IMG/VR virus record: IMGVR_UViG_2778261245_000001
Span: 1 to 38,365 of that record
Reading direction: 5' to 3' (one strand)
Length of the DNA: 38,365 nucleotides
Source: a virus
Lineage: Duplodnaviria > Heunggongvirae > Uroviricota > Caudoviricetes
Numbering within the stretch: the first letter of the stretch is position 1; every line of letters begins with the position of its first letter. Under the pieces are notes generated by a model. That model was not told the DNA's origin. It ran no database searches and saw only the letters and a program-made list of their open reading frames with translations. A program made the translations under genes and the position numbers. Shown here one piece after another: positions 5,008-14,943 of the stretch.

Positions 5008-5949
5008 ATGAGCACTAAATTAACCGGCTATGTATGGGATGGTTGCGCTGCGTCAGGCATGAAATTATCCAGCGTGGCAATTATGGCCCGCCTGGCTGAT
5101 TTCAGTAATGACGAAGGTGTGTGCTGGCCATCAATTGAAACCATTGCCCGTCAGATTGGCGCGGGGATGAGTACCGTCAGAACGGCTATCGCACGGCTGG
5201 AAGCAGAAGGCTGGTTAACGCGTAAGGCGCGTCGCCAGGGTAACCGCAATGCGTCGAATGTTTATCAGCTTAACGTTGCGAAGCTTCAGGCAGCGGCATT
5301 TTCTCAACTGTCAGATTCTGACCCGTCAAAATCTGACGCATCAAAATCTGACCCGTCAAAATTTGATGCGTCGAAATCTGGCAAAAAAGCGGGTTTTCAC
5401 CCGTCAGAATCTGGCGGGGATCCGTCAGTAAAATCAAAACATGATCCGTCAGATAAAAAACCTTCTCGTCCGGACGCTTCGCAACCGGACACGCAGACGG
5501 CTGAACAGGATTTTTTAACTCGCCATCCTGATGCGGTTGTATTCAGCCCTAAAAAGCGCCAGTGGGGGACGCAGGATGATTTGACCTGCGCACAGTGGCT
5601 CTGGAAAAAAATCATCGCCCTGTACGAGCAGGCTGCCGAATGTGACGGCGAGGTGGTTCGTCCCAAAGAACCGAACTGGACAGCCTGGGCAAACGAAATT
5701 CGCCTGATGTGTGTACAGGATGGGCGTACTCACAAACAAATCTGCGAGATGTACAGCCGCGTCAGCCGCGATCCGTTCTGGTGCCGTAACGTGCTCAGCC
5801 CGTCGAAGCTGCGGGAAAAATGGGATGAGCTTTCCCTGCGCTTATCGCCGTCCGTCAGCACGTACACCGAAAAACGCGAGGACCCGTACTTCAAAGCCAG
5901 TTACGACAACGTGGACTACAGCCAGATCCCGGCAGGATTCAGAGGGTGA
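5008..5949 (+). CDS. Phage replication initiator (lambda O-like: N-terminal HTH, internal iteron-encoded repeat region, C-terminal domain)
   Basis: 313 aa; N-terminal winged-helix-like segment; central low-complexity DPSKSD repeats encoded by DNA iterons; position after cro/cII-like genes. Confidence 0.7.
   Translation: MSTKLTGYVWDGCAASGMKLSSVAIMARLADFSNDEGVCWPSIETIARQIGAGMSTVRTAIARLEAEGWLTRKARRQGNRNASNVYQLNVAKLQAAAFSQLSDSDPSKSDASKSDPSKFDASKSGKKAGFHPSESGGDPSVKSKHDPSDKKPSRPDASQPDTQTAEQDFLTRHPDAVVFSPKKRQWGTQDDLTCAQWLWKKIIALYEQAAECDGEVVRPKEPNWTAWANEIRLMCVQDGRTHKQICEMYSRVSRDPFWCRNVLSPSKLREKWDELSLRLSPSVSTYTEKREDPYFKASYDNVDYSQIPAGFRG
5311..5455. repeat. Iteron array (candidate replication origin) inside the replication-initiator gene
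   Basis: At least 7 tandem copies of a 12-15 bp unit resembling CCGTCA(A/G)AATCTGA, e.g. gacccgtcaaaatctgacgcatcaaaatctgacccgtcaaaatttgatgcgtcgaaatctgg. Confidence 0.55.
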
Positions 5950-6440
5950 TCATGAGTCTGTTAAATGACGTTCAGAAATTCATTGAAGCCCATCCGGGGT
6001 GTACTTCCGGAGACATTGCGGATGCTTTTGCAGGTTACTCACGGCAGCGCGTTCTGCAGTCTGCAAGCAAGTTACGTCAGAGTGGGCGTGTGGCTCACCG
6101 TTGTGAAGGAGATACACGCAGACATTTCCCGCGCCTGACTGAGAGAGCGCAGGAACCGGAACCACAACCAGTTCGAGAAACCAGACCTGTGCGCAATTTC
6201 TATGTCGGCACTAACGATCCACGGGTGATTTTGTGCCTGACCCGCCAGGCTGAAGAACTGGAGTCCAGGGGCTTATACCGTCGTGCTGCAACCGTGTGGA
6301 TGGCGGCATTCCGTGAAAGCCACTCCCAGCCAGAACGAAACAATTTTCTGGCGCGTCGTGAGCTGTGTTTACGTAAAAGCAGCAAGCGCGCTGTATCGAG
6401 TGATGAGTGGTATCTGTCAGGGAATTACGTGGGGGCGTAA
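5946..6440 (+). CDS. Hypothetical protein with C-terminal PerC/Pch-like regulator motif
   Basis: 164 aa; C-terminal LESRGLYRRAATVW...ARRELC resembles the PerC/Pch family signature (recalled, not searched); N-terminal part looks winged-helix-like. Confidence 0.4.
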   Translation: MIMSLLNDVQKFIEAHPGCTSGDIADAFAGYSRQRVLQSASKLRQSGRVAHRCEGDTRRHFPRLTERAQEPEPQPVRETRPVRNFYVGTNDPRVILCLTRQAEELESRGLYRRAATVWMAAFRESHSQPERNNFLARRELCLRKSSKRAVSSDEWYLSGNYVGA

Positions 6441-6766
6441 TGACGACGTTAACTCAATGCCAGCAGCAGGTGCTGGATATGCTGATTTCTTATCAGAAAG
6501 AGCGTGGCTTTCCGCCAACCAATCAGGAGGTGGCAACCATGCTGGGATACCGTTCAGTGAATGCAGCGGTAGAGCATCTTCGCGCACTGGAGAAAAAAGG
6601 CGTCATCACGATAAAGCGTGGCGTGGCCCGGGGGATAACGCTTCATACCGCGGTGAAGGACGACGACAGCGAGGCGGTCGGGATTATCCGCGCACTGCTT
6701 GCCGGTGAGGAAAACGCAAGGCTGCGTGCAACCCACTGGTTACATGAGAGGGGCCTGAAAGTATGA
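6440..6766 (+). CDS. LexA N-terminal DNA-binding-domain-like protein lacking the S24 peptidase domain
   Basis: 108 aa from ATG 6440 (TAATG overlap with upstream gene); residues TLTQCQQQVLDMLISYQKERGFPPTNQEVATMLGYRSVNAAVEHLRALEKKGVITI align closely with the LexA N-terminal winged HTH; no Ser/Lys peptidase region. Confidence 0.65.
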   Translation: MTTLTQCQQQVLDMLISYQKERGFPPTNQEVATMLGYRSVNAAVEHLRALEKKGVITIKRGVARGITLHTAVKDDDSEAVGIIRALLAGEENARLRATHWLHERGLKV

Positions 6767-7152
6767 AGCTGATCCTGCCTTTTCCGCCCAGCGTGAACAC
6801 GTACTGGCGACACCCCAACAAAGGGGCGTTTGCTGGTAAGAGCCTGATAAGCGCGGCGGGGCGAAAATTCCAGAGCGCAGCGTGCGCAGCAATAGTTGAG
6901 CAGTTACGTCGTCTGCCGAAACCAACGTCGGCACCTGCTTCAGTGGAGATCGTGTTGTTTCCTCCGGATAACCGGATCCGCGATCTGGACAACTATAACA
7001 AGGCGCTGTTTGACGCCCTGACCCACGCGGGTGTGTGGGAAGACGACAGCCAAGTGAAAAGAATGTTGGTGGAGTGGGGACCGGTTATCCCGGAAGGGAA
7101 GGTCGAGATCACTATCAGTAAGTACGAGAAACCGGCGGGTGCAGCCGCCTGA
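6763..7152 (+). CDS. rusA: RusA-family Holliday junction resolvase
   Basis: 129 aa; motifs PPSVNTYWRH and RDLDNYNKALFDALTHAGVWEDDSQV match RusA ([36 protein letters not shown]). Confidence 0.85.
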   Translation: MKLILPFPPSVNTYWRHPNKGAFAGKSLISAAGRKFQSAACAAIVEQLRRLPKPTSAPASVEIVLFPPDNRIRDLDNYNKALFDALTHAGVWEDDSQVKRMLVEWGPVIPEGKVEITISKYEKPAGAAA

Positions 7153-7171
7153 TTAAGAGGAGAAACGAAGT

Positions 7172-7969
7172 ATGAATAATCTGATGGTCATTGATGGTAT
7201 TGAAGTTCGTCGTGATGCTTATGGGCGTTACAGCCTGAACGATCTGCACAGGGCTGCCGGTTCTCTGGATAAGCATAAGCCTGCATTCTGGCTCCGCAAT
7301 GAGCAAACTGAACGTTTAATAAGCGAGTTGCAGATTTGCAACTCGGTCAATATAGAGCCAGTTAACGTTATTCGTGGCGGAAATAACCAGGGGACGTATG
7401 TCTGCAAAGAACTGGTGTATGCCTATGCAATGTGGATCAGCCCGTCATTCCATCTGAAGGTGATCCGTACTTTCGATATGGTAACCAGCGCACCGGAAAA
7501 ATTATCCGGACAGGCTGCTGACAAGATGCAGGCTGGTGTGATTCTGCTGGACTTTATGCGCCGGGAATTAAACCTGTCTAACTCTTCAGTGCTTGGTGCC
7601 TGTCAGAAACTCCAGGAGGCTGTTGGCTTACCGAATCTGGCACCGCGCTATGCCATTGATGCTCCTGCTGATGCACTCGATGGCTCAAGCCGCCCTACGC
7701 TATCATTGAGTGCACTGCTGAAGCAGTATGGTATCCGCCTTACGGCTAATCAGGCATATCACCAGATGGTGAAGCTGGGGATCGTCGAACAGCGCGAACG
7801 ATACAGCCGTACCGCGATTAACAACATCAAAAAATTCTGGTCGCTGACAGCGAAAGGCTGCATGTTCGGCAAGAACATCACCAGTCCCGCAAATCCGCGC
7901 GAGACGCAGCCGCACTTTTTCGAATCCCGATTCCCTGAGCTGTTAAAGCTGCTCGATACCGTTCATTGA
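7172..7969 (+). CDS. KilA-N/Bro-N-type DNA-binding domain protein (putative antirepressor-like)
   Basis: 265 aa; N-terminal region has the character of a KilA-N/Bro-N domain, recognised from memory only; common early-region phage gene. Confidence 0.45.
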   Translation: MNNLMVIDGIEVRRDAYGRYSLNDLHRAAGSLDKHKPAFWLRNEQTERLISELQICNSVNIEPVNVIRGGNNQGTYVCKELVYAYAMWISPSFHLKVIRTFDMVTSAPEKLSGQAADKMQAGVILLDFMRRELNLSNSSVLGACQKLQEAVGLPNLAPRYAIDAPADALDGSSRPTLSLSALLKQYGIRLTANQAYHQMVKLGIVEQRERYSRTAINNIKKFWSLTAKGCMFGKNITSPANPRETQPHFFESRFPELLKLLDTVH

Positions 7970-7976
7970 GGTTACC

Positions 7977-8965
7977 GTGAGAGCACTACTGACCCCTGAA
8001 ATTGCCCCGCGTATGGGGATCGTATTGTTCAGACCAGGTTCAGAGCTGATGCCCCTGTTTATGCAGGGGCGTGTCCTGCTGGAGCCTGAGCCGGAGCATT
8101 ATTCATCTTTCGCCAGTGGTGCCGTTCCCGCGGCATCACAACCGCTGGCGGATGATCCTGCCGTTCGGGCCGTGTTCCGTAATGAGGCAGTGATTCGTCG
8201 TGCTGGTGGGGTGGAATGTCTTGAAAGCTGGTTACTTCGTGAAAAAGGCTGCCAGTGGCCTCATTCCGACTGGCACAGCGAGAACATGACCACAATGCGA
8301 CACGCGCCGGGCGCAATCCGTCTGTGCTGGCACTGTGATAACCAGCTGCGCGATCAGTTCACGGAACGGCTGGAATCAATGGCAACGGATAACTGTGCCC
8401 GGTGGGTGTTATCTGTCGTGCGTCGGGATCTCGGTTTTAATGATAGTCACGTTGTGACAATGCCGGAACTGTGCTGGTGGCTGGTTCGTAATGACCTGGC
8501 GGATGCCTTACCGGAAAGTGCAGCCCGTAAGGCACTGAGATTACCGAAGCCTGTTGTGCCGTCTGTCACCCGGGAAAGTGACCTTGTGCCTTCGGTTCCT
8601 GCCCCAGCATCATCCAGGATAAAGCGAAAAAGGTGCTGGCGCTGAAAGTGGATCCGGAGTCGCCGGAGTCTTTTATGTTACGCCCCAAACGTCGCCGCTG
8701 GGTTAATGAAAAGTACACGCGCTGGGTTAAGACGCAGCCGTGCGCATGTTGTGGAAAGCCTGCTGATGATGCCCACCACCTGATAGGTCACGGTCAGGGT
8801 GGAATGGGTACAAAAGCGCATGACCTTTTTGTGTTGCCTTTGTGCAGAAAGCATCACGACGAGCTGCATGCGGATACCGTGGTATTTGAAGAGAAGTATG
8901 GCTCCCAGTTGGAGCTGATATTTCGTTTTATTGATCGTGCGCTGGCAATTGGCGTGCTGGCCTGA
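7977..8965 (+). pseudogene. DUF968/YdfU-like gene split by a frameshift into two ORFs (7977-8645 and 8633-8965)
   Basis: Two adjacent ORFs in different frames (222 + 110 aa) whose sum matches a roughly 330-aa DUF968 protein; the second carries a Cys/His zinc-binding-like motif CACCGKPADDAHH...PLCRKHHDELH; junction lies at an A5 run near 8604-8608. Confidence 0.5.
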
Positions 8966-8979
8966 TTTGGTGGAGAAAG

Positions 8980-9330
8980 TTGATGCGTGATATGTATGAA
9001 GTATTGGACCGCTGGGGAGCATGGGCTGCAGCAGAAAATAGTGGTGTGGACTGGCAGCCGATAGCGGCTGGTTTCAAGGGACTTTTACCACACGGTAAAA
9101 AGTCACGTCTCCAGTGTGATGATGATGAAGGCATCATGATAGATAGTTGTGTGGCTAGGTTGCGTAAATATAAGCCGGAAGAGTATGAGCTGATAATTGC
9201 TCACTTTGTTATCGGTATCTCATTACGCACTATTGCGAAGAAGAGAAAATGCTCTGATGGGACTATAAGAAAAAAGTTGCAAGCTGCATTGGGATTTATT
9301 GATGCAGTTATATATATAATACATGGGTAA
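8980..9330 (+). CDS. Late-gene antiterminator Q
   Basis: 116 aa; LDRWGAWAAAENSGVDWQPIAAGFKGL...KSRLQCDDDEGIMIDSCVARL matches the Q-family pattern of lambdoid prophages. Confidence 0.8.
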   Translation: MMRDMYEVLDRWGAWAAAENSGVDWQPIAAGFKGLLPHGKKSRLQCDDDEGIMIDSCVARLRKYKPEEYELIIAHFVIGISLRTIAKKRKCSDGTIRKKLQAALGFIDAVIYIIHG

Positions 9331-9337
9331 TTTATTA

Positions 9338-9356
9338 GACGGCCATATTGGCCGTC
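9338..9356. terminator. Bidirectional hairpin terminator between Q and the convergent cassette
   Basis: Perfect hairpin GACGGCCA-TAT-TGGCCGTC with AT-rich flanks on both sides; overlaps the stop codon of the 9355-10542 gene. Confidence 0.55.
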
Positions 9357-10542
9357 AGCTAAATAAATATGTAATAGCATAAGGCGTAAGTAAAAAGTAG
9401 AATCTAAATGTAAGATATAAGCCACATAAAACTATAATTCCTAATGAGGCAAAAACAACTTTCTGAACAAGCAATCTTGTGGTTAAACTATCAAATGTAT
9501 CCTTTATATCTTCGTAAATAGCCTTGAAGTTATATTCTGCTTGTTGTTTTTTATGATTTAACTCATCATTTATTGCTGTTAAAGTTTGCCATTGATTAAA
9601 TAGAACAAATAGAATCATAATAGTGAAGAACAATGCACCCAACACTACAGCTGTGTTTATTAATGCTTGACTATCCCAACCATTAGCCTGCTTCATTTGA
9701 GTCGCAACGATAATTGTTGCGACGGGGATACCTAATATCTGATTTTGTATGTCACTGAATACTTTATGTATTTTCCCCATCTCTTCTATTTTGGCTACTC
9801 GTAACTGATCCAGTATTTTCTCGTAAGAAAAACCAGAAACGAATACTTTGTATCCTTTTTGATAACTTTCATAAAGTTGTCCTAAATCCCTTAACATGAA
9901 GGAAAAAGAGGTTTCTTTAGTTTTAGATTCACATGATGATTTTATACTACTTGCTAAAATAGTAAGTTTTTGATCTTTATGCGTATCTTCTGCAAAGTTT
10001 GCGATCAAATTATGAATCAGATCTCCATTAACATTCATAAGATCATCGCTAGAATAATTTACTGGAATTTTTAGTACGTTGGATTCGACGAATACCAATT
10101 CAAAATTTGTTTCATCTAAATAAGCAGAACAATCTTTGAATAAAGTAATTAAGCTCAAAACATCTCTGTACTTGGATATAATAGCAGGCGACTTTTTATC
10201 CCTGTTGTGATAATTAAGTTCGATTATAAAGAAGTTACTGGCTTCCTTTATCCTATTTTTAGGATTTTTTAAATACTCATTAAAAGAGAAATGTAGCTGC
10301 CCCAATCGTAATTTGGGGGGGGTTATATGTAAGGTTATAGTTTGGCCTAACTCAATGTTGCCAGATTCAAGGGTGATGCCAAAATCATGGGGATTCTCTG
10401 TGATATCGTTGATGATGTCACAGAGCTCCTCGTTTGAAAGAATGAGTGATGCTTCAGATAGGGTACCTGCAAATGTAGCGGCCTTGTAAATAGTCACTAA
10501 GTCTTTGAAGGTTCTCTGATTGTTACTGCTCATCCTCTTCAC
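9355..10542 (-). CDS. Hypothetical protein with large N-terminal soluble domain and C-terminal two-helix transmembrane hairpin (cassette gene B)
   Basis: 395 aa, AT-rich codon usage; hydrophobic segments ALINTAVVLGALFFTIMILFVLF and VVFASLGIIVLCGLYLTFRFYFLL near the C-terminus; start overlaps upstream gene stop (GAGGATGAG); ATG at 10533 is an alternative start. Confidence 0.6.
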   Translation of the reverse strand: MKRMSSNNQRTFKDLVTIYKAATFAGTLSEASLILSNEELCDIINDITENPHDFGITLESGNIELGQTITLHITPPKLRLGQLHFSFNEYLKNPKNRIKEASNFFIIELNYHNRDKKSPAIISKYRDVLSLITLFKDCSAYLDETNFELVFVESNVLKIPVNYSSDDLMNVNGDLIHNLIANFAEDTHKDQKLTILASSIKSSCESKTKETSFSFMLRDLGQLYESYQKGYKVFVSGFSYEKILDQLRVAKIEEMGKIHKVFSDIQNQILGIPVATIIVATQMKQANGWDSQALINTAVVLGALFFTIMILFVLFNQWQTLTAINDELNHKKQQAEYNFKAIYEDIKDTFDSLTTRLLVQKVVFASLGIIVLCGLYLTFRFYFLLTPYAITYLFS

Positions 10543-11557
10543 CTAATTCTGATAAAATCTCTGATCTTAGCGTATCCGGAATCTCGGTAAGTATCAATTT
10601 ATCGTTTTCTGAATCATAAAGAACGCTGCCATCATGCAAGGCCGCACGCTCGAATTTCAGAGACCAATGTTTGGACTTTCCTTTGAAACTAACAAGCCCA
10701 CGTATAACGTTGCCATCAGGCACGAACCCATCAGAGAACTCCAGATCGTCATTGGTTAACTTTTCAACTAACAACTCAGGAGCAGTTGGCCATATCTCGT
10801 TTGCAAAAATTTGAGTGTCGAAAGTTTCACCAGAACGATTTAAATTTTTTAATTTTTCATGAGCCTTATTTAGGAACTCTTCACGTGCCTCTGGTTCAAA
10901 ACCTCTTTCAGTAGCAAATTCTAAAAGTGCATTCCGTAATTTTGTTGTTTCTTGTTTGGCAATTAGAATATCGTTGCAACCTAAAAACTTTTTGAAATAA
11001 CCTGCTACTGAATTTTGCCCCTTTAGAAAGCTAATATATCTCTCTTTGCCATTCTGGCGCCCAGTTAAGTCAATTCGTCCCGCTACTCGAAGTTTAGCAA
11101 TGTCTAGATATTCACTTTCTTGAATTTCAAAATCGTGGACTGAAGAGCCAACTGCTGATGTTAGGATTGCAACCATCAAATAATGATTTCCATTTACCTC
11201 ATTATGGGCAATTATTACATAACCACCAGTAGACATTGATTCATCATCGGCTCTGGCTTTTAAATGATTGATCATTCGGATACTAGTATCATAAAAACTA
11301 TGTGTTTTATTTACGAAATAATCATCAACGATATTACCCATAGGGTAACTATCGCGGTCATCTTCAAATTTCCCATATCCTTTACCTGCTCTCCCAGAGT
11401 ACCTTTCAGTAAGTGCGTTAGAGAGGTCTTTTGATGCTTGCTGAACAGGTTTTTCTGAAGGACAAGGAATAATGGTGGCTAACCCCTGTTGTTCCTTGTT
11501 CATAATGTGAACAATAAACTTATGAGTGATATTAGTGGGGGTCGCTGATGCAGTCAT
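10523..11557 (-). CDS. YejK/NdpA-family nucleoid-associated protein homolog (cassette gene A)
   Basis: 344 aa; similarity to E. coli YejK along the whole length as recalled: N-terminal ITHKFIVHIMNKEQQ (YejK INQIALHQLIKRDEQ), central YLDIAKLRVAGRIDLT...RYISFLKG...FLG (YejK YLDINHADIVARIDLT...RYLTFLKG...FLG), C-terminal KLILTEIPDTLRSEI (YejK TLTIKGTPPNLRDQL); AAGGA RBS upstream. Confidence 0.65.
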   Translation of the reverse strand: MTASATPTNITHKFIVHIMNKEQQGLATIIPCPSEKPVQQASKDLSNALTERYSGRAGKGYGKFEDDRDSYPMGNIVDDYFVNKTHSFYDTSIRMINHLKARADDESMSTGGYVIIAHNEVNGNHYLMVAILTSAVGSSVHDFEIQESEYLDIAKLRVAGRIDLTGRQNGKERYISFLKGQNSVAGYFKKFLGCNDILIAKQETTKLRNALLEFATERGFEPEAREEFLNKAHEKLKNLNRSGETFDTQIFANEIWPTAPELLVEKLTNDDLEFSDGFVPDGNVIRGLVSFKGKSKHWSLKFERAALHDGSVLYDSENDKLILTEIPDTLRSEILSELGEEDEQ

Positions 11558-11592
11558 AACAACATCCTTTTAATGGTTTTGAACAATTGGTG

Positions 11593-11620
11593 TTGATAAT
11601 ACTTCAAAAAATACTAATGC
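11593..11620 (+). promoter_or_regulatory. Putative late promoter (PR-prime-like) upstream of tR-prime
   Basis: TTGATA (about 11593-11598) with an AT-rich -10 candidate (TACTAA/TAATGC) 14-16 nt downstream; position about 60 nt upstream of a terminator and 230 nt upstream of the holin. Confidence 0.3.
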
Positions 11621-11673
11621 GTACGCAAAAAATACAGTACTCTGTTAAGAGTGGTTACTTCGCCACACAGCTT

Positions 11674-11700
11674 AAACCCGCCGTCGAGCGGGTTTTGTCG
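11674..11700 (+). terminator. Rho-independent terminator upstream of the lysis cassette (candidate tR-prime, the Q target)
   Basis: Stem AAACCCGC / GCGGGTTT with loop CGTCGA followed by TTGTCGTTTCT. Confidence 0.6.
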
Positions 11701-11847
11701 TTTCTGGGCTTTGGTATTCGTTGGGCTTGGTCTATCTAGCTCTTATCCATTGGCTCGGCTTCTTTTACGTTTCCGCTTCTGATTTGCGGTTCGTGGTACT
11801 CCCTCAATTTGCACCTCTTGTATCGGCGAGGTGAGAGATAACTACAA

Positions 11848-12174
11848 ATGCCTCATAACCCAAATACTTGGCTGGAGTTGGTCCAGAGCTGGTGGCGTGG
11901 AGACACACCGCTGGGCGCAGTGATTATGTCGATTGTTATGGCTGGTTTGCGCATTGCCTATTTTGGCGGTGGTGGTGGCTGGAAGCGAAAAACACTCGAA
12001 ATTCTACTCTGTGGCGCTCTGACGCTGACTTTTGCATCCGCTCTTGAGTATGTCGGATGGCCTAAATCGCTTTCTGTTGCCATTGGTGGTGGGGTGGGGC
12101 TGATCGGTGTCGATGCTATTCGTGGGGCTGCAATGAGAGTAATCGGTAATAAGTTTGGTGGCTCTAAGGAGTAA
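11848..12174 (+). CDS. S: Holin (lambda S-like class I)
   Basis: 108 aa; multiple hydrophobic segments and charged C-terminus; pattern parallels lambda S; immediately precedes endolysin. Confidence 0.8.
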   Translation: MPHNPNTWLELVQSWWRGDTPLGAVIMSIVMAGLRIAYFGGGGGWKRKTLEILLCGALTLTFASALEYVGWPKSLSVAIGGGVGLIGVDAIRGAAMRVIGNKFGGSKE

Positions 12175-12177
12175 TTT

Positions 12178-12654
12178 ATGCAGGTACTAAATTCCCAGCG
12201 TAAAGCTTTCCTCGATATGGTGGCATGGTCAGAAGGAACGGATAACGGGCGACAACCGACACGTAACCACGGTTATGATGTTATTGTTGGTGGTGAACTG
12301 TTCACTGATTACTCCGATCACCCTCGCAAACTTGTCACGCTAAACCCAAAACTCAAATCAACAGCCGCCGGACGTTACCAGCTTCTTTCCCGTTGGTGGG
12401 ATGCCTACCGTAAGCAGCTTGGCCTGAAAGACTTCTCTCCAAAAAGCCAGGACGCTGTGGCATTGCAGCAGATTAAGGAGCGTGGCGCTTTACCGATGAT
12501 TGATCGCGGTGATATTCGTCAGGCTATCGACCGTTGCAGCAATATCTGGGCTTCACTGCCGGGCGCTGGTTATGGCCAGTTCGAGCATAAGGCTGACAGC
12601 CTGATTGCAAAATTCAAAGAGGCTGGCGGAACGGTCAGAGAGATTGAGGTATGA
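12178..12654 (+). CDS. R: Endolysin, lytic transglycosylase (near-identical to lambda R as recalled)
   Basis: 158 aa; [148 protein letters not shown] matches lambda R almost residue for residue. Confidence 0.95.
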
Positions 12655-13088
12655 GCAGAGTCACCGCGATTATCTCCGCTCTGATTATCTGCATCATCGT
12701 CTGCCTGTCATGGGCTGTTAATCATTACCGTGATAACGCCATCGCCTACAAAGAGCAGCGCGATAAAGCCACATCCATCATCGCTGACATGCAGAAGCGT
12801 CAACGTGATGTAGCAGAACTCGACGCCAGATATACAAAGGAGCTTGCTGATGCTAACGCGACTATCGAAAGTCTCCGTGCTGATGTTTCTGCTGGGCGTA
12901 AGCGCCTGCAAGTCGCCGCCACCTGTGCAAAGTCAACGACCGGAGCCAGCAGCATGGGCGATGGAGAAAGCCCAGGACTTACAGCAGATGCTGAACTCAA
13001 TTATTACCGTCTCCGAAGTGGAATCGACAGGATAACCGCGCAGGTTAACTACCTGCAGGAATACATCAGGACGCAATGCCTTCGATGA
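12651..13088 (+). CDS. Rz: Inner-membrane spanin Rz
   Basis: 145 aa; N-terminus [31 protein letters not shown] matches lambda Rz; coiled-coil body. Confidence 0.9.
12844..13035 (+). CDS. Rz1: Outer-membrane lipoprotein spanin Rz1, embedded in the +1 frame of Rz
   Basis: 63 aa; signal peptide with lipobox-like LGVSAC followed by proline-rich segment, fully nested in Rz as in lambda. Confidence 0.8.
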
Positions 13089-13338
13089 TAGCGATAATTT
13101 TACTCATCATCCTTCACATCTGGCTCTGTAGACAGGGTGGTGCTTACTTCTGGAGCGAATCCAGATTAAACATCTCATTGCTGATGCTTGATATTGAGCA
13201 TCTGGCGCGCGGTAAGGGCTGTGTTGAGATAAGTGCCAGTTCATTACAAAGCTATATCTAATGGAACCTGAAATAATTTGTCATTGTCATGACAAGAAAA
13301 TTCATTAATGATGAGCTCTCATTATACGGGAGGTAGAT

Positions 13339-13587
13339 ATGGCATTTCGTTATTTTGAACTTACCGAAAATATTCCTTTTGAGGATGCAAGAGAGCTTCA
13401 CGTACAGTTCAAACACCACTTAGAATATGTTGTAAAGGCATTATTTATGTTAGGAACACATGAAAAGCATTTAATTGTTGAAGGCCGGGATGACGAATCG
13501 ATAACACAGATATTTGGTGGGCATGATGAAAAGTTTATGCATCTTTATCATATCGATGAATATGAAAAACGTGAAGACTTAATCTAA
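13339..13587 (+). CDS. Hypothetical small protein, 82 aa
   Basis: ORF with GGAGG-like RBS (gggaggtagatATG); preceded by a perfect 12-bp palindrome TTGTCATGACAA at about 13284-13295. Confidence 0.4.
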   Translation: MAFRYFELTENIPFEDARELHVQFKHHLEYVVKALFMLGTHEKHLIVEGRDDESITQIFGGHDEKFMHLYHIDEYEKREDLI

Positions 13588-13702
13588 CCTCCTACGACTG
13601 TTTTTATTGCCATCATAAAAGCCATTCCTTGCAGAGTGGCTTTGATAATGGATATCCCAACAAGCGGATAAGACAATAAATATACCCACCAGGGGATAAA
13701 CA

Positions 13703-13948
13703 ATGTCTAAAATCACGGTTACACCTGCATAGCAGATCCGCTTAAACCTGCTGGCGAAACTGAACTATGACACCGCCGCTGCAGCAGACGCGATTAAGTT
13801 TGTTGGTGACGATCCGTTGAAGTATCAAATCTTTGTGAACCAGTTAAGCTGGGTAATATCTGAAAGCGGGCTGGTAGCCAGAACGACGAAAGCTATCAAA
13901 GAGTCGGAAGACACACTACTGTGGTTTGAAGCTGAATCTGGTTCATAA
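13703..13948 (+). pseudogene. 81-codon reading frame with good RBS interrupted by an in-frame TAG at codon 10 (13730-13732)
   Basis: AGGGGA RBS 7 nt upstream of ATG 13703; frame reads MSKITVTPA-TAG-QIRLNLLAKLNYDTAAAADAIKFVGDDPLKYQIFVNQLSWVISESGLVARTTKAIKESEDTLLWFEAESGS, stopping at TAA 13946-13948 directly before the next gene. Confidence 0.4.
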
Positions 13949-13996
13949 GTGAATGAATGTGGTAATTTAATCCTCCGCAAAAAAAAGGGGATAAAA

Positions 13997-14218
13997 ATGC
14001 TAAAGAATGTCATAGCTATTTTACCGGGTGACGCGTTTGATCATGTTGTTGTCCAGGACGACCTGGAGATTGTTACCTTCAGGGGTGACAAGGGCGGCGT
14101 GCTTACTATGCCTATCGAGGAGTACGAACTAGACGGGATAAGTTATAACGTCGCACGTTGTGACGGTATGGTCACTGACGAAAAAGTTGAGAAGGCTATC
14201 AGACACTTCACCAAGTAA
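13997..14218 (+). CDS. Hypothetical small protein, 73 aa
   Basis: ATG with AAAGGGGA RBS; ORF track lists a GTG-extended version from 13949; followed by a strong terminator. Confidence 0.45.
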   Translation: MLKNVIAILPGDAFDHVVVQDDLEIVTFRGDKGGVLTMPIEEYELDGISYNVARCDGMVTDEKVEKAIRHFTK

Positions 14219-14235
14219 TAATCAGCTTCCGAACC

Positions 14236-14260
14236 AAGCCTCGCAATAGCGAGGCTTTTT
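14236..14260 (+). terminator. Rho-independent terminator
   Basis: AAGCCTCGC-AATA-GCGAGGCTT followed by TTT. Confidence 0.75.
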
Positions 14261-14272
14261 AACGACAGAGGT

Positions 14273-14467
14273 ATGACAGTGGTTCTTACAGCTAAGCAGT
14301 TTGAAGACCTTGCATCCTTCGCGAAGGAAGATAGCCAGCCTCAATACACCATCGCAACCGGAATAATCCCAGAATTCGAAGATGATTGTGAGTTTATCCC
14401 CGTTTATGCCGGGCTCATCGCTTATTTAGAGTTACTGAATCACGGTGTATTGCAACTCGACCACTAG
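14273..14467 (+). CDS. Hypothetical small acidic protein, 64 aa
   Basis: ORF between two terminator-bounded units; no family recognised. Confidence 0.35.
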   Translation: MTVVLTAKQFEDLASFAKEDSQPQYTIATGIIPEFEDDCEFIPVYAGLIAYLELLNHGVLQLDH

Positions 14468-14541
14468 CGACATTACGCCAAGTATTCATCAAGTGCCTAG
14501 TTTAATGTTAAATTATTCCCTCATTCATAAAAGGGAATGTT

Positions 14542-14943
14542 ATGAAAATAGATCACGAGTATTTGAAAGGTCTTTTGGAAGCTTTCGAGGCGTCTGAAGA
14601 GCCGCATACTGATATAAAGCAGCTGCAGCTGGCTGGGTATGACTACAGCACCGATGAATTTTTATTCCATATGCGTTTATTGGCTGATCGTCAACTAATT
14701 GCTAGAACAGACGGCAAGTATGGGTTTGGTTTCTCTGAGGCTGCTGATGGAGGATCATGGTTCGTTATACCGTTACGATTAACTTCAAGCGGTCATGACT
14801 TCCTTGAAGCTCTCAGGAATAAAGAGGTTTGGAATTCTCTCAAGACCGGCTTTAAAGATGCAAGCATTGGAACATTAGTTGACGTTTCAAGGCGTTTGCT
14901 GGATGGTTATATTCAGAAAAAAATTGACGACTTAATTGGCTAA
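14542..14943 (+). CDS. DUF2513-like prophage protein (winged-helix-like), 133 aa
   Basis: N-terminus MKIDHEYLKGLLEAFEASEE resembles the DUF2513 family as recalled; own terminator downstream. Confidence 0.45.
   Translation: MKIDHEYLKGLLEAFEASEEPHTDIKQLQLAGYDYSTDEFLFHMRLLADRQLIARTDGKYGFGFSEAADGGSWFVIPLRLTSSGHDFLEALRNKEVWNSLKTGFKDASIGTLVDVSRRLLDGYIQKKIDDLIG

Follow-up and report, generated by a model that had tools for sequence, protein, structure and literature searches.

What is a pair of low-GC genes doing on the opposite strand of a lambdoid prophage, between the antiterminator gene Q and the lysis genes? The window that we analysed, the whole 38,365-nt stretch of tailed-phage DNA recorded as IMGVR_UViG_2778261245_000001, carries two such genes as intact minus-strand open reading frames (ORFs) at its Q-to-lysis junction: gene A (10523..11557, 344 aa), which encodes a nucleoid-associated protein (NAP) of the YejK/NdpA family, and gene B (9355..10533), which encodes a protein with a C-terminal membrane anchor. 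The answer that we consider probable is that the two genes form an anti-phage system of the DS-1 and type II PANGU kind, carried by the prophage and expressed in the lysogen from a promoter of their own. That this particular cassette defends its host, which phages it targets and what gene B does to the cell are points that we infer, and the evidence for each is set out below.

Gene A, gene B and their relation to DS-1 and PANGU

Gene A had been taken, in an earlier reading made from the sequence only and without database searches (the sequence-only reading), for a homologue of YejK/NdpA along its whole length. A hidden Markov model search against Pfam NA37 bore this out (E 8.3e-69), aligning residues 15-330 with profile positions 1-324 of 325. 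The protein, whose exact accession is WP_000127202.1, falls into PHROG 3767 ('nucleoid associated protein'), its family profile matches the solved structure of E. coli YejK (PDB 9be2) at E 7.6e-51, and its AlphaFold2 (AF2) model has a mean confidence (pLDDT) of 86. It is about 26% identical to E. coli YejK, and with 164.8 bits against the NCBIfam YejK model (NF001557) it does not reach the equivalog cut-off of 341. Gene A as the housekeeping YejK itself was rejected on the grounds of this sub-cut-off score, its location as prophage cargo and its constant pairing with gene B.

For gene B the ATG at 10533, giving 392 aa, was taken as the conserved start over the GTG at 10542, because the N-termini of homologues read MSSN(N/S)QRTF. 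No Pfam domain was found in the protein, the search returning sub-threshold noise only (YbhQ, OppC_N); it belongs to PHROG 5023 (annotated as function unknown) with an E value of 4e-80. Hydropathy places two transmembrane (TM) helices at about residues 288-316 (TM1) and 350-384 (TM2), with a weaker hydrophobic stretch at 258-280, and so upholds the earlier description of a soluble N-terminal part followed by two C-terminal TM helices. In the AF2 model (pLDDT 80) an N-terminal alpha/beta domain of about residues 1-180 is followed by a helical region and by three long helices at residues 217-279, 288-335 and 337-382. A search for structural relatives by sequence profile against the PDB was empty, and Foldseek against the PDB and BFVD gave none at E <= 0.001. 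Across 31-85% identity the gene B family retains many invariant residues, among them the motifs DTH[KR][DE]QK and GFSY.K and a Q/N-rich segment entering the membrane. The best-conserved segment is this membrane-entering one, KGY..F.SGFSY.K..DQL..AK.EE.GKIHK.F.D.QN.ILG.P.A....ATQ.K, and the TM region itself contains the invariant polar or small residues N293, G299, N313, Q314 and Q357.

The closest validated relative of this pair is DS-1, an E. coli pair of an NA37 protein and a two-TM protein found by DefensePredictor and validated against phages, which was described first in a January 2025 preprint and then in Science 2026 (PMC13092281). Its first protein, DS-1A (WP_000355468.1), consists of a zinc ribbon and an NA37 domain and is followed by DS-1B (WP_000150292.1), a 404-aa protein with two TM segments (PMC13092281). 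Cloned with its native promoter in MG1655, DS-1 lowered plating by 7.6 logs for Bas1, 2.7 for Bas26 and 1.7 for Bas3, and by 1.7, 1.0 and 0.9 logs for T3, T5 and T7, respectively (PMC13092281). On mechanism the paper offers nothing beyond the YejK domain being newly validated in defence (PMC13092281).

The two NCBIfam models for DS-1 (NF053868 / NF053869), DS1_1_antiphage and DS1_2_antiphage, have equivalog cut-offs of 330 and 315 bits. Gene A scored 56.2 bits against the former, the 'nucleoid-associated anti-phage protein' (E 2.8e-15, residues 56-247), and gene B scored 70.3 bits against the latter (E 1.6e-19), both far short of the cut-off. DS1_2 was matched by 26/26 diverse members of the gene B family, the best with E 5.9e-26 and none near the cut-off. 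When the family profiles were aligned with hhalign, gene B (86 sequences) and DS-1B (32 sequences) matched at 98.75% with E 1.4e-16 over ~344 columns, which is almost the whole protein. Judged by these scores, gene B is a remote homologue of DS-1B and not an equivalog, and since both equivalog cut-offs fail we regard the cassette as a distinct subfamily. It has the features of the DS-1-like superfamily, namely a gene B homologous lengthwise to DS-1B with C-terminal TM helices, and an NA37 gene immediately upstream.

The second comparable system is PANGU, a class described in an April 2026 preprint as a YejK-like NAP with an effector, of which type II pairs the NAP Pag2A with the transmembrane effector Pag2B (10.64898/2026.04.06.716658). 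Pag2B has an N-terminal acidic 'DNA-mimic' domain (DMK), which binds the NAP, and a C-terminal TM domain; the dissociation constant (KD) between Pag2A and the Pag2B N-domain is 19 nM, and Pag2A-GFP moves off the nucleoid upon infection (10.64898/2026.04.06.716658). The E. coli type II system (PANGU-Ecu) gave 3-4 logs of protection against T4, for which both genes were required, and neither gene was toxic alone (10.64898/2026.04.06.716658). Its phenotype resembles abortive infection (Abi), and T4 escape mutations fell in the host-DNA endonuclease gene denA (10.64898/2026.04.06.716658). For type I PANGU it was reported that the NAP dimer rings DNA, that at least 400 bp are required, and that a DNA-binding-dead NAP turns the effector toxic (10.64898/2026.04.06.716658). 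How Pag2B acts, and how Pag2A activates it, the authors leave undetermined (10.64898/2026.04.06.716658).

The pair in the window had looked unnamed because PADLOC v2 finds nothing: neither protein matches any model of PADLOC-DB v2.0.0 (2023) at E <= 1. This blank is no sign of novelty, since the library predates both DS-1 and PANGU. Gene A, under its accession WP_000127202.1, and the gene B cluster (representative WP_053264141.1) are listed in Table S10 of the DefensePredictor paper, each as 'predicted novel defense gene' and with log-odds of 9.1 and 12.0, respectively (PMC13092281). The sequence-only reading did not recognise the pairing as a named system, and in this it was mistaken: the pair matches systems that carry the names DS-1 and type II PANGU, which disposes of its novelty. 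The kind of system is already known and named, and by its sequence the window cassette is a divergent, predicted subfamily of it, the second in E. coli.

A coupled pair at an exchangeable cargo site

The two genes of the cassette overlap by 11 nt, and the TAA of gene A (10525-10523) could be read directly inside the start of gene B, within ...GAAGAGGATGAGCAGTAA... A GAGGA lies just upstream of the gene B start, and together with the overlap it suggests translational coupling. Linkage was surveyed in one genome per species, which gave 20 loci with a full-length gene B homologue (31-71% identity) from gamma-, beta- and alphaproteobacteria. In 20/20 of these an NA37 gene (34-75% identity to A) stood directly 5' of the gene B homologue on the same strand. 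The stop of the A homologue and the start of the B homologue either overlap by 4-35 nt or lie 2 nt from each other in 18/18 loci where the B start could be assigned, the divergence of A and that of B are correlated (r = 0.90), and in 17/20 loci the GC content of the cassette is below that of its flanks.

The gene B family counts 369 matches in 90% clusters, and its superfamily, by representatives of 50% clusters, 1169 at E <= 1e-3, 809 at 1e-10 and 338 at 1e-30, nearly all of them 380-430 aa long. The cassette itself was found, 99.7-100% identical, in 16/5426 complete E. coli genomes. A cassette of 76-77% identity occupies the same place in Enterobacter prophages, whose lysis module and early genes differ. 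Of 50,697 phage records only 6 encode a gene B homologue, the closest being that of Klebsiella phage Kp4865-4 with 79% protein identity.

The features of the site in the window are the following.

8980..9330, plus strand: antiterminator Q gene, left flank of the cargo site (Pfam Phage_antitermQ, E 1.2e-44; annotated 'antiterminator Q family protein' in an identical E. coli locus)
9303..11607, no strand: swapped cargo segment, GC 0.354 (blastn, dissimilar to the DS-1-bearing sister prophage)
9330..9364, core 9338-9356, no strand: inverted repeat or hairpin where the 3' ends of Q and gene B converge (repeat search)
9355..10533, minus strand: gene B, 392 aa, DS-1B / Pag2B-like membrane partner (PHROG 5023, DS1_2_antiphage, hydropathy, AF2)
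10523..10533, minus strand: 11-nt overlap of the gene A stop and the gene B start (sequence read)
10523..11557, minus strand: gene A, 344 aa, YejK/NdpA family (NA37), DS-1A / PagA-like (Pfam NA37, PHROG 3767, PDB 9be2 profile match)
11558..11607, minus strand: cassette-specific 50-nt leader, promoter-proximal, 5' of gene A (gap between the gene A ATG and the flank common to the DS-1 locus)
11608..11696, plus strand: conserved right flank, candidate Q-responsive late promoter/leader with tR' (blastn, alignment)
11848..13088, plus strand: lysis module with holin 11848-12174, lysozyme 12178-12654 and Rz 12651-13088 (Pfam Phage_holin_3_1 for the holin, E 5.7e-25; ORF list; sister-locus annotation)

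This layout agrees with what had been seen from the sequence alone, that is, two overlapping minus-strand genes of low GC content among plus-strand neighbours, placed in the Q-to-lysis junction. The GC content is 0.356 in the cassette vs 0.53 in the left and 0.48 in the right flank, Q ends at 9330 and the holin begins at 11848, and all neighbours (KilA-N, DUF968 and Q on the left; holin, lysozyme and Rz on the right) lie on the plus strand. A bidirectional hairpin at 9338-9356 stood up in part: the inverted repeat is real, with arms at 9330-9345 and 9349-9364 (16 nt, 81% complementary, 3-nt loop, core GACGGCCA..TGGCCGTC), but no T-run accompanies it and the terminator scan made no call there, so that it is no canonical intrinsic terminator and at most a putative bidirectional one.

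Comparison with the DS-1 locus of a sister prophage in E. coli NCCP15648 defined the ends of the cargo. By blastn the sister prophage is 90-97% identical to window positions 5874-9302, up to 28 nt before the Q stop, is unrelated over 9303-11607, and is again 87.6% identical over 11608-11696. Because similarity is lost at 9302 and regained at 11608, the same pair of flanks encloses DS-1 in one prophage and the window cassette in the other, as cargoes that have been swapped. Both cassettes converge with Q, and both come with ~50 nt of leader of their own. The 3' ends of DS-1 and Q overlap by 21 nt (locus L030, 5016-7408; locus L031, 4840-7232), and DS-1 occurs in at least two lambdoid backbones, a DLP12-like one with Iss and one in which tRNAs and a SASA-family esterase precede a class II holin.

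The same family of Q genes (>= 80% nt identity) is present in 687 E. coli genomes. In ST131 and in strain 639 the place of the NA37 pair after this Q is taken by a C5 DNA methyltransferase together with a convergent HEPN nuclease (MAE_28990 family) and a DUF262 protein (L032, 4935-7793; L033, 4937-7797). With DS-1, the window cassette and this methyltransferase plus HEPN/DUF262 set all occupying one site, the junction downstream of Q is a hotspot for defence-like cargo.

To the right of the cargo, the window shares a conserved block of ~85 nt (about 11596-11680) with the DS-1 locus and an Enterobacter prophage, even though their cargo and lysis genes differ; most of the flank 11608-11696 is thereby found in the Enterobacter prophage too. 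In the window, plus-strand positions 11674-11695 form a terminator-like hairpin, AAACCCGCCGTCGAGCGGGTTT followed by TGTCGTTTCT; the DS-1 locus has it as well, and the Enterobacter prophage lacks it at that position. Since the conserved block travels with this Q family, 11608-11696 may hold the Q-responsive late promoter/leader and tR', which would place the cassette between Q and its target promoter and outside the late transcript.

Several other features of these prophages were recorded. An AT-rich stretch (GC 0.35-0.42) right after Rz, at 13089-14943, looks like a second cargo site; its ORFs at 13339-13587 (PHROG 35226, of unknown function), 13949-14218 (no match) and 14542-14943 (a DUF2513 protein, PHROG 585) have no match in PADLOC. 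In sister prophages a DUF6236 gene (L001, 15873-16736; L023, 2615-3481) takes the position after the lysis genes that the small ORFs occupy in the window. DUF6236 was predicted to be defensive by DefensePredictor, and the tested unit '6236' scored not defensive (PMC13092281). In Enterobacter prophages that bear the cassette, the early region includes a gene for a protein of 379 aa that has a Colicin pore-forming domain (PF01024; L024 and L025, 11887-13026), and one of these prophages has a HicA/HicB pair (L023, 15446-16145). On the left of Q, the DUF968 gene of the window (7977-8965) is split into ORFs 7977-8645 and 8633-8965, which match Pfam DUF968 positions 2-53 and 66-171; in the sister prophage L001 it is intact (329 aa), and the split in the window is a frameshift/pseudogene or a sequencing error.

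Proposed function and rival explanations

We read the cassette as a defence system because of its homology to the validated DS-1, the behaviour of type II PANGU, the strict linkage of A and B and the hotspot location. Defence of the abortive-infection type, as the sequence-only reading had proposed, is thus backed by homology to DS-1 and by the work on type II PANGU, and would proceed as follows. The lysogen would express A and B from a putative promoter in or near 11558-11700, and the gene A protein, as a YejK-like NAP, would sit non-specifically along the host chromosome. Once a superinfecting phage fragments the host DNA, the gene A protein would be freed and could bind the membrane-anchored gene B protein at its cytoplasmic N-terminal domain. 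Gene B would then arrest the infected cell and so keep the phage from multiplying; disturbance of the inner membrane is the most plausible means. The steps of chromosome coating, release, binding to B and arrest are taken from the PANGU experiments, which were done on homologues of unknown closeness. A permeabilising or disturbing action of gene B on the inner membrane may be expected because the protein has two TM helices with invariant polar residues and a conserved membrane-entry segment, and because this is the usual behaviour of TM effectors in Abi systems. The phages restricted by DS-1 are presumably T1-like, T5-like and T7-like. Phages of these kinds degrade host DNA, which would fit the sensing of genome degradation.

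A number of observations weigh against this reading. The similarity to DS-1 is remote, with BLASTP identities of 25% (gene A, over 197 aa) and 28% (gene B, over 104 aa) and NCBIfam scores a fifth of the cut-offs, and while DS-1 is experimentally validated the window cassette is, on present grounds, a predicted defence system only. Gene B is likened to Pag2B by architecture and description, not by sequence, and the 'DNA mimic' property is not evident from the composition of its N-domain, which appears mildly acidic (residues 1-265 have a net charge of -6, within a family range of -1 to -16, and an isoelectric point of 5.7). A sigma-70 consensus scan of 11558-11847 on both strands found none, so that neither a cassette promoter nor PR' was located. 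Furthermore, the homologues in Pectobacterium, Klebsiella and Jeongeupia (37-40% identity) belong to Mu-like transposable prophages, where they share the orientation of the phage genes and immediately precede holin and endolysin; in these loci (L026, L027 and L028) the pair lies at ~6990-9230, between the early region and holin/endolysin. As a separate observation, the pair occurs twice in the Jeongeupia wiesaeckerbachi chromosome (L011 and L012), both copies giving identical matches to the two window proteins. One copy was placed in a Mu-like prophage (L027, which covers the region of L011); the two copies suggest duplication by transposition or double lysogeny.

A bolder form of the defence reading, which we put forward tentatively and consider rather unlikely, would make the gene B family a new class of NAP-gated membrane channel. 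Gene B would be reminiscent of CorA in having a cytoplasmic alpha/beta domain, a long stalk helix and two C-terminal TM helices with invariant Asn, Gln and Gly residues, and the channel would be opened by binding of the released nucleoid protein. The window subfamily and DS-1 would then be functionally distinct 'alleles' with different phage spectra, swapped at the Q/late-promoter hotspot, and Mu-like phages might also use the pair themselves, beside their lysis genes.

The defence could also run with its logic reversed, with membrane protein B sensing adsorption, DNA injection or a perturbation of the membrane, and NA37 protein A coating or clamping the incoming phage DNA and blocking its replication or transcription. 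Such a division of labour is reportedly that of Kiwa, in which the membrane protein KwaA is the sensor and the DNA binder KwaB the effector, and the cassette has the same architecture of a membrane protein and a DNA-binding protein in one operon. It would also suit gene B being most conserved in the segment leading into the membrane, and the PANGU authors, who do not settle how Pag2A and Pag2B engage, once suggest that PagB might be the sensor (10.64898/2026.04.06.716658). The escape of T4 through denA and the departure of Pag2A from the nucleoid point instead to the NAP as the sensor, and in type I PANGU the same NAP family activates an enzymatic toxin (10.64898/2026.04.06.716658). In the Pfam and PADLOC scans B showed no sequence relationship to KwaA, nor A to KwaB/DUF4868, and membership of Kiwa was rejected on this basis. 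We hold the reversed scheme to be improbable.

A further explanation is that the pair serves the phage itself, either as a nucleoid protein that tunes host or prophage transcription or as a factor for lytic growth that acts on host DNA, on the membrane or on the timing of lysis. The NdpA-like protein Pnd of plasmid pCAR1, itself encoded on a mobile element, is said to have a role in tuning transcription. The pair is overwhelmingly prophage-borne, there are PHROGs for both proteins, and the pair adjoins the lysis module not only in the Mu-like prophages, where it runs in the direction of the phage genes up to holin and endolysin, but in lambdoid prophages too. The lambdoid pair is, however, transcribed opposite to the late operon and outside it, the usual layout of a moron expressed in the lysogen, and its rarity among the phage records speaks against a core phage function. 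Moreover, other defence-like cargo takes the place of the cassette at its site, and the homologous DS-1, cloned alone, protects a host that contains no phage (PMC13092281). A function of this kind is therefore unlikely in our estimate, and the sequence-only reading's own alternative of nucleoid remodelling or lysogenic conversion is likewise less likely than defence, because the NAP is obligatorily coupled to a membrane partner. That the cassette is inactive or decaying cargo without a current function, as the frameshifted DUF968 next to it and the promoter scan without a consensus might hint, is most improbable given that both ORFs are intact, that the cassette is conserved at 99.7-100% in 16 genomes, that many residues are invariant over 31-85% identity and that the AF2 models are confident.

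Comparison with known systems

Within the reading that we prefer, an anti-phage system of the DS-1 / type II PANGU kind, the class as a whole was discovered recently and is mechanistically unexplained, with a nucleoid-associated protein acting as a guard of genome integrity. New here are the allelic swap with DS-1, the hotspot bounded by Q and the putative late promoter, the occurrence in Mu-like prophages, the strict A-B coupling and the motifs of gene B. Neither the DefensePredictor paper nor the PANGU preprint describes such systems as interchangeable cargo where Q meets the putative late promoter in lambdoid prophages, or ahead of the lysis genes in Mu-like ones, and the lambdoid junction is a place to mine for further defence genes. 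Comparing the window subfamily with DS-1 could separate the conserved mechanism from specificity, and the invariant motifs of gene B are direct mutagenesis targets for studying the action of type II effectors.

With chromosomal YejK/NdpA (9be2) gene A shares its fold family over its full length, but YejK is a standalone housekeeping gene, whereas gene A is always coupled to gene B. To Kiwa, with its membrane protein KwaA and DNA-binding protein KwaB, the cassette bears a functional analogy only. Type I PANGU (Pag1A and Pag1B) has a NAP sensor of the same family as gene A and the same proposed trigger, release from a degraded chromosome; its effector Pag1B, however, is a soluble alarmone synthetase (GRel toxSAS), whereas gene B is a membrane protein.

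The architecture of type II PANGU is that of the cassette, a bicistronic operon of a YejK-like NAP and a partner with a soluble N-terminal and a C-terminal TM domain. The type II system is likewise of E. coli origin, and its model is of the Abi type, with the NAP sensing degradation of the host genome. The strongly acidic 'DNA-mimic' surface described for its effector is not obvious from the composition of gene B. The surroundings differ: PANGU systems are found near defence islands, with prophages unmentioned in the preprint (10.64898/2026.04.06.716658), whereas the window cassette is prophage cargo at the Q/late-promoter junction.

DS-1 has the gene order of the window, an NA37/YejK protein and then a protein of ~400 aa with C-terminal membrane helices, although DS-1A has an additional N-terminal zinc-ribbon (NinF-like) segment that gene A lacks. 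The two differ in prevalence, DS-1 being present in 106 and the window cassette in 16 of the 5426 complete E. coli genomes, and they share their insertion site, convergent with the same Q gene and between the same flanks in sister lambdoid prophages.

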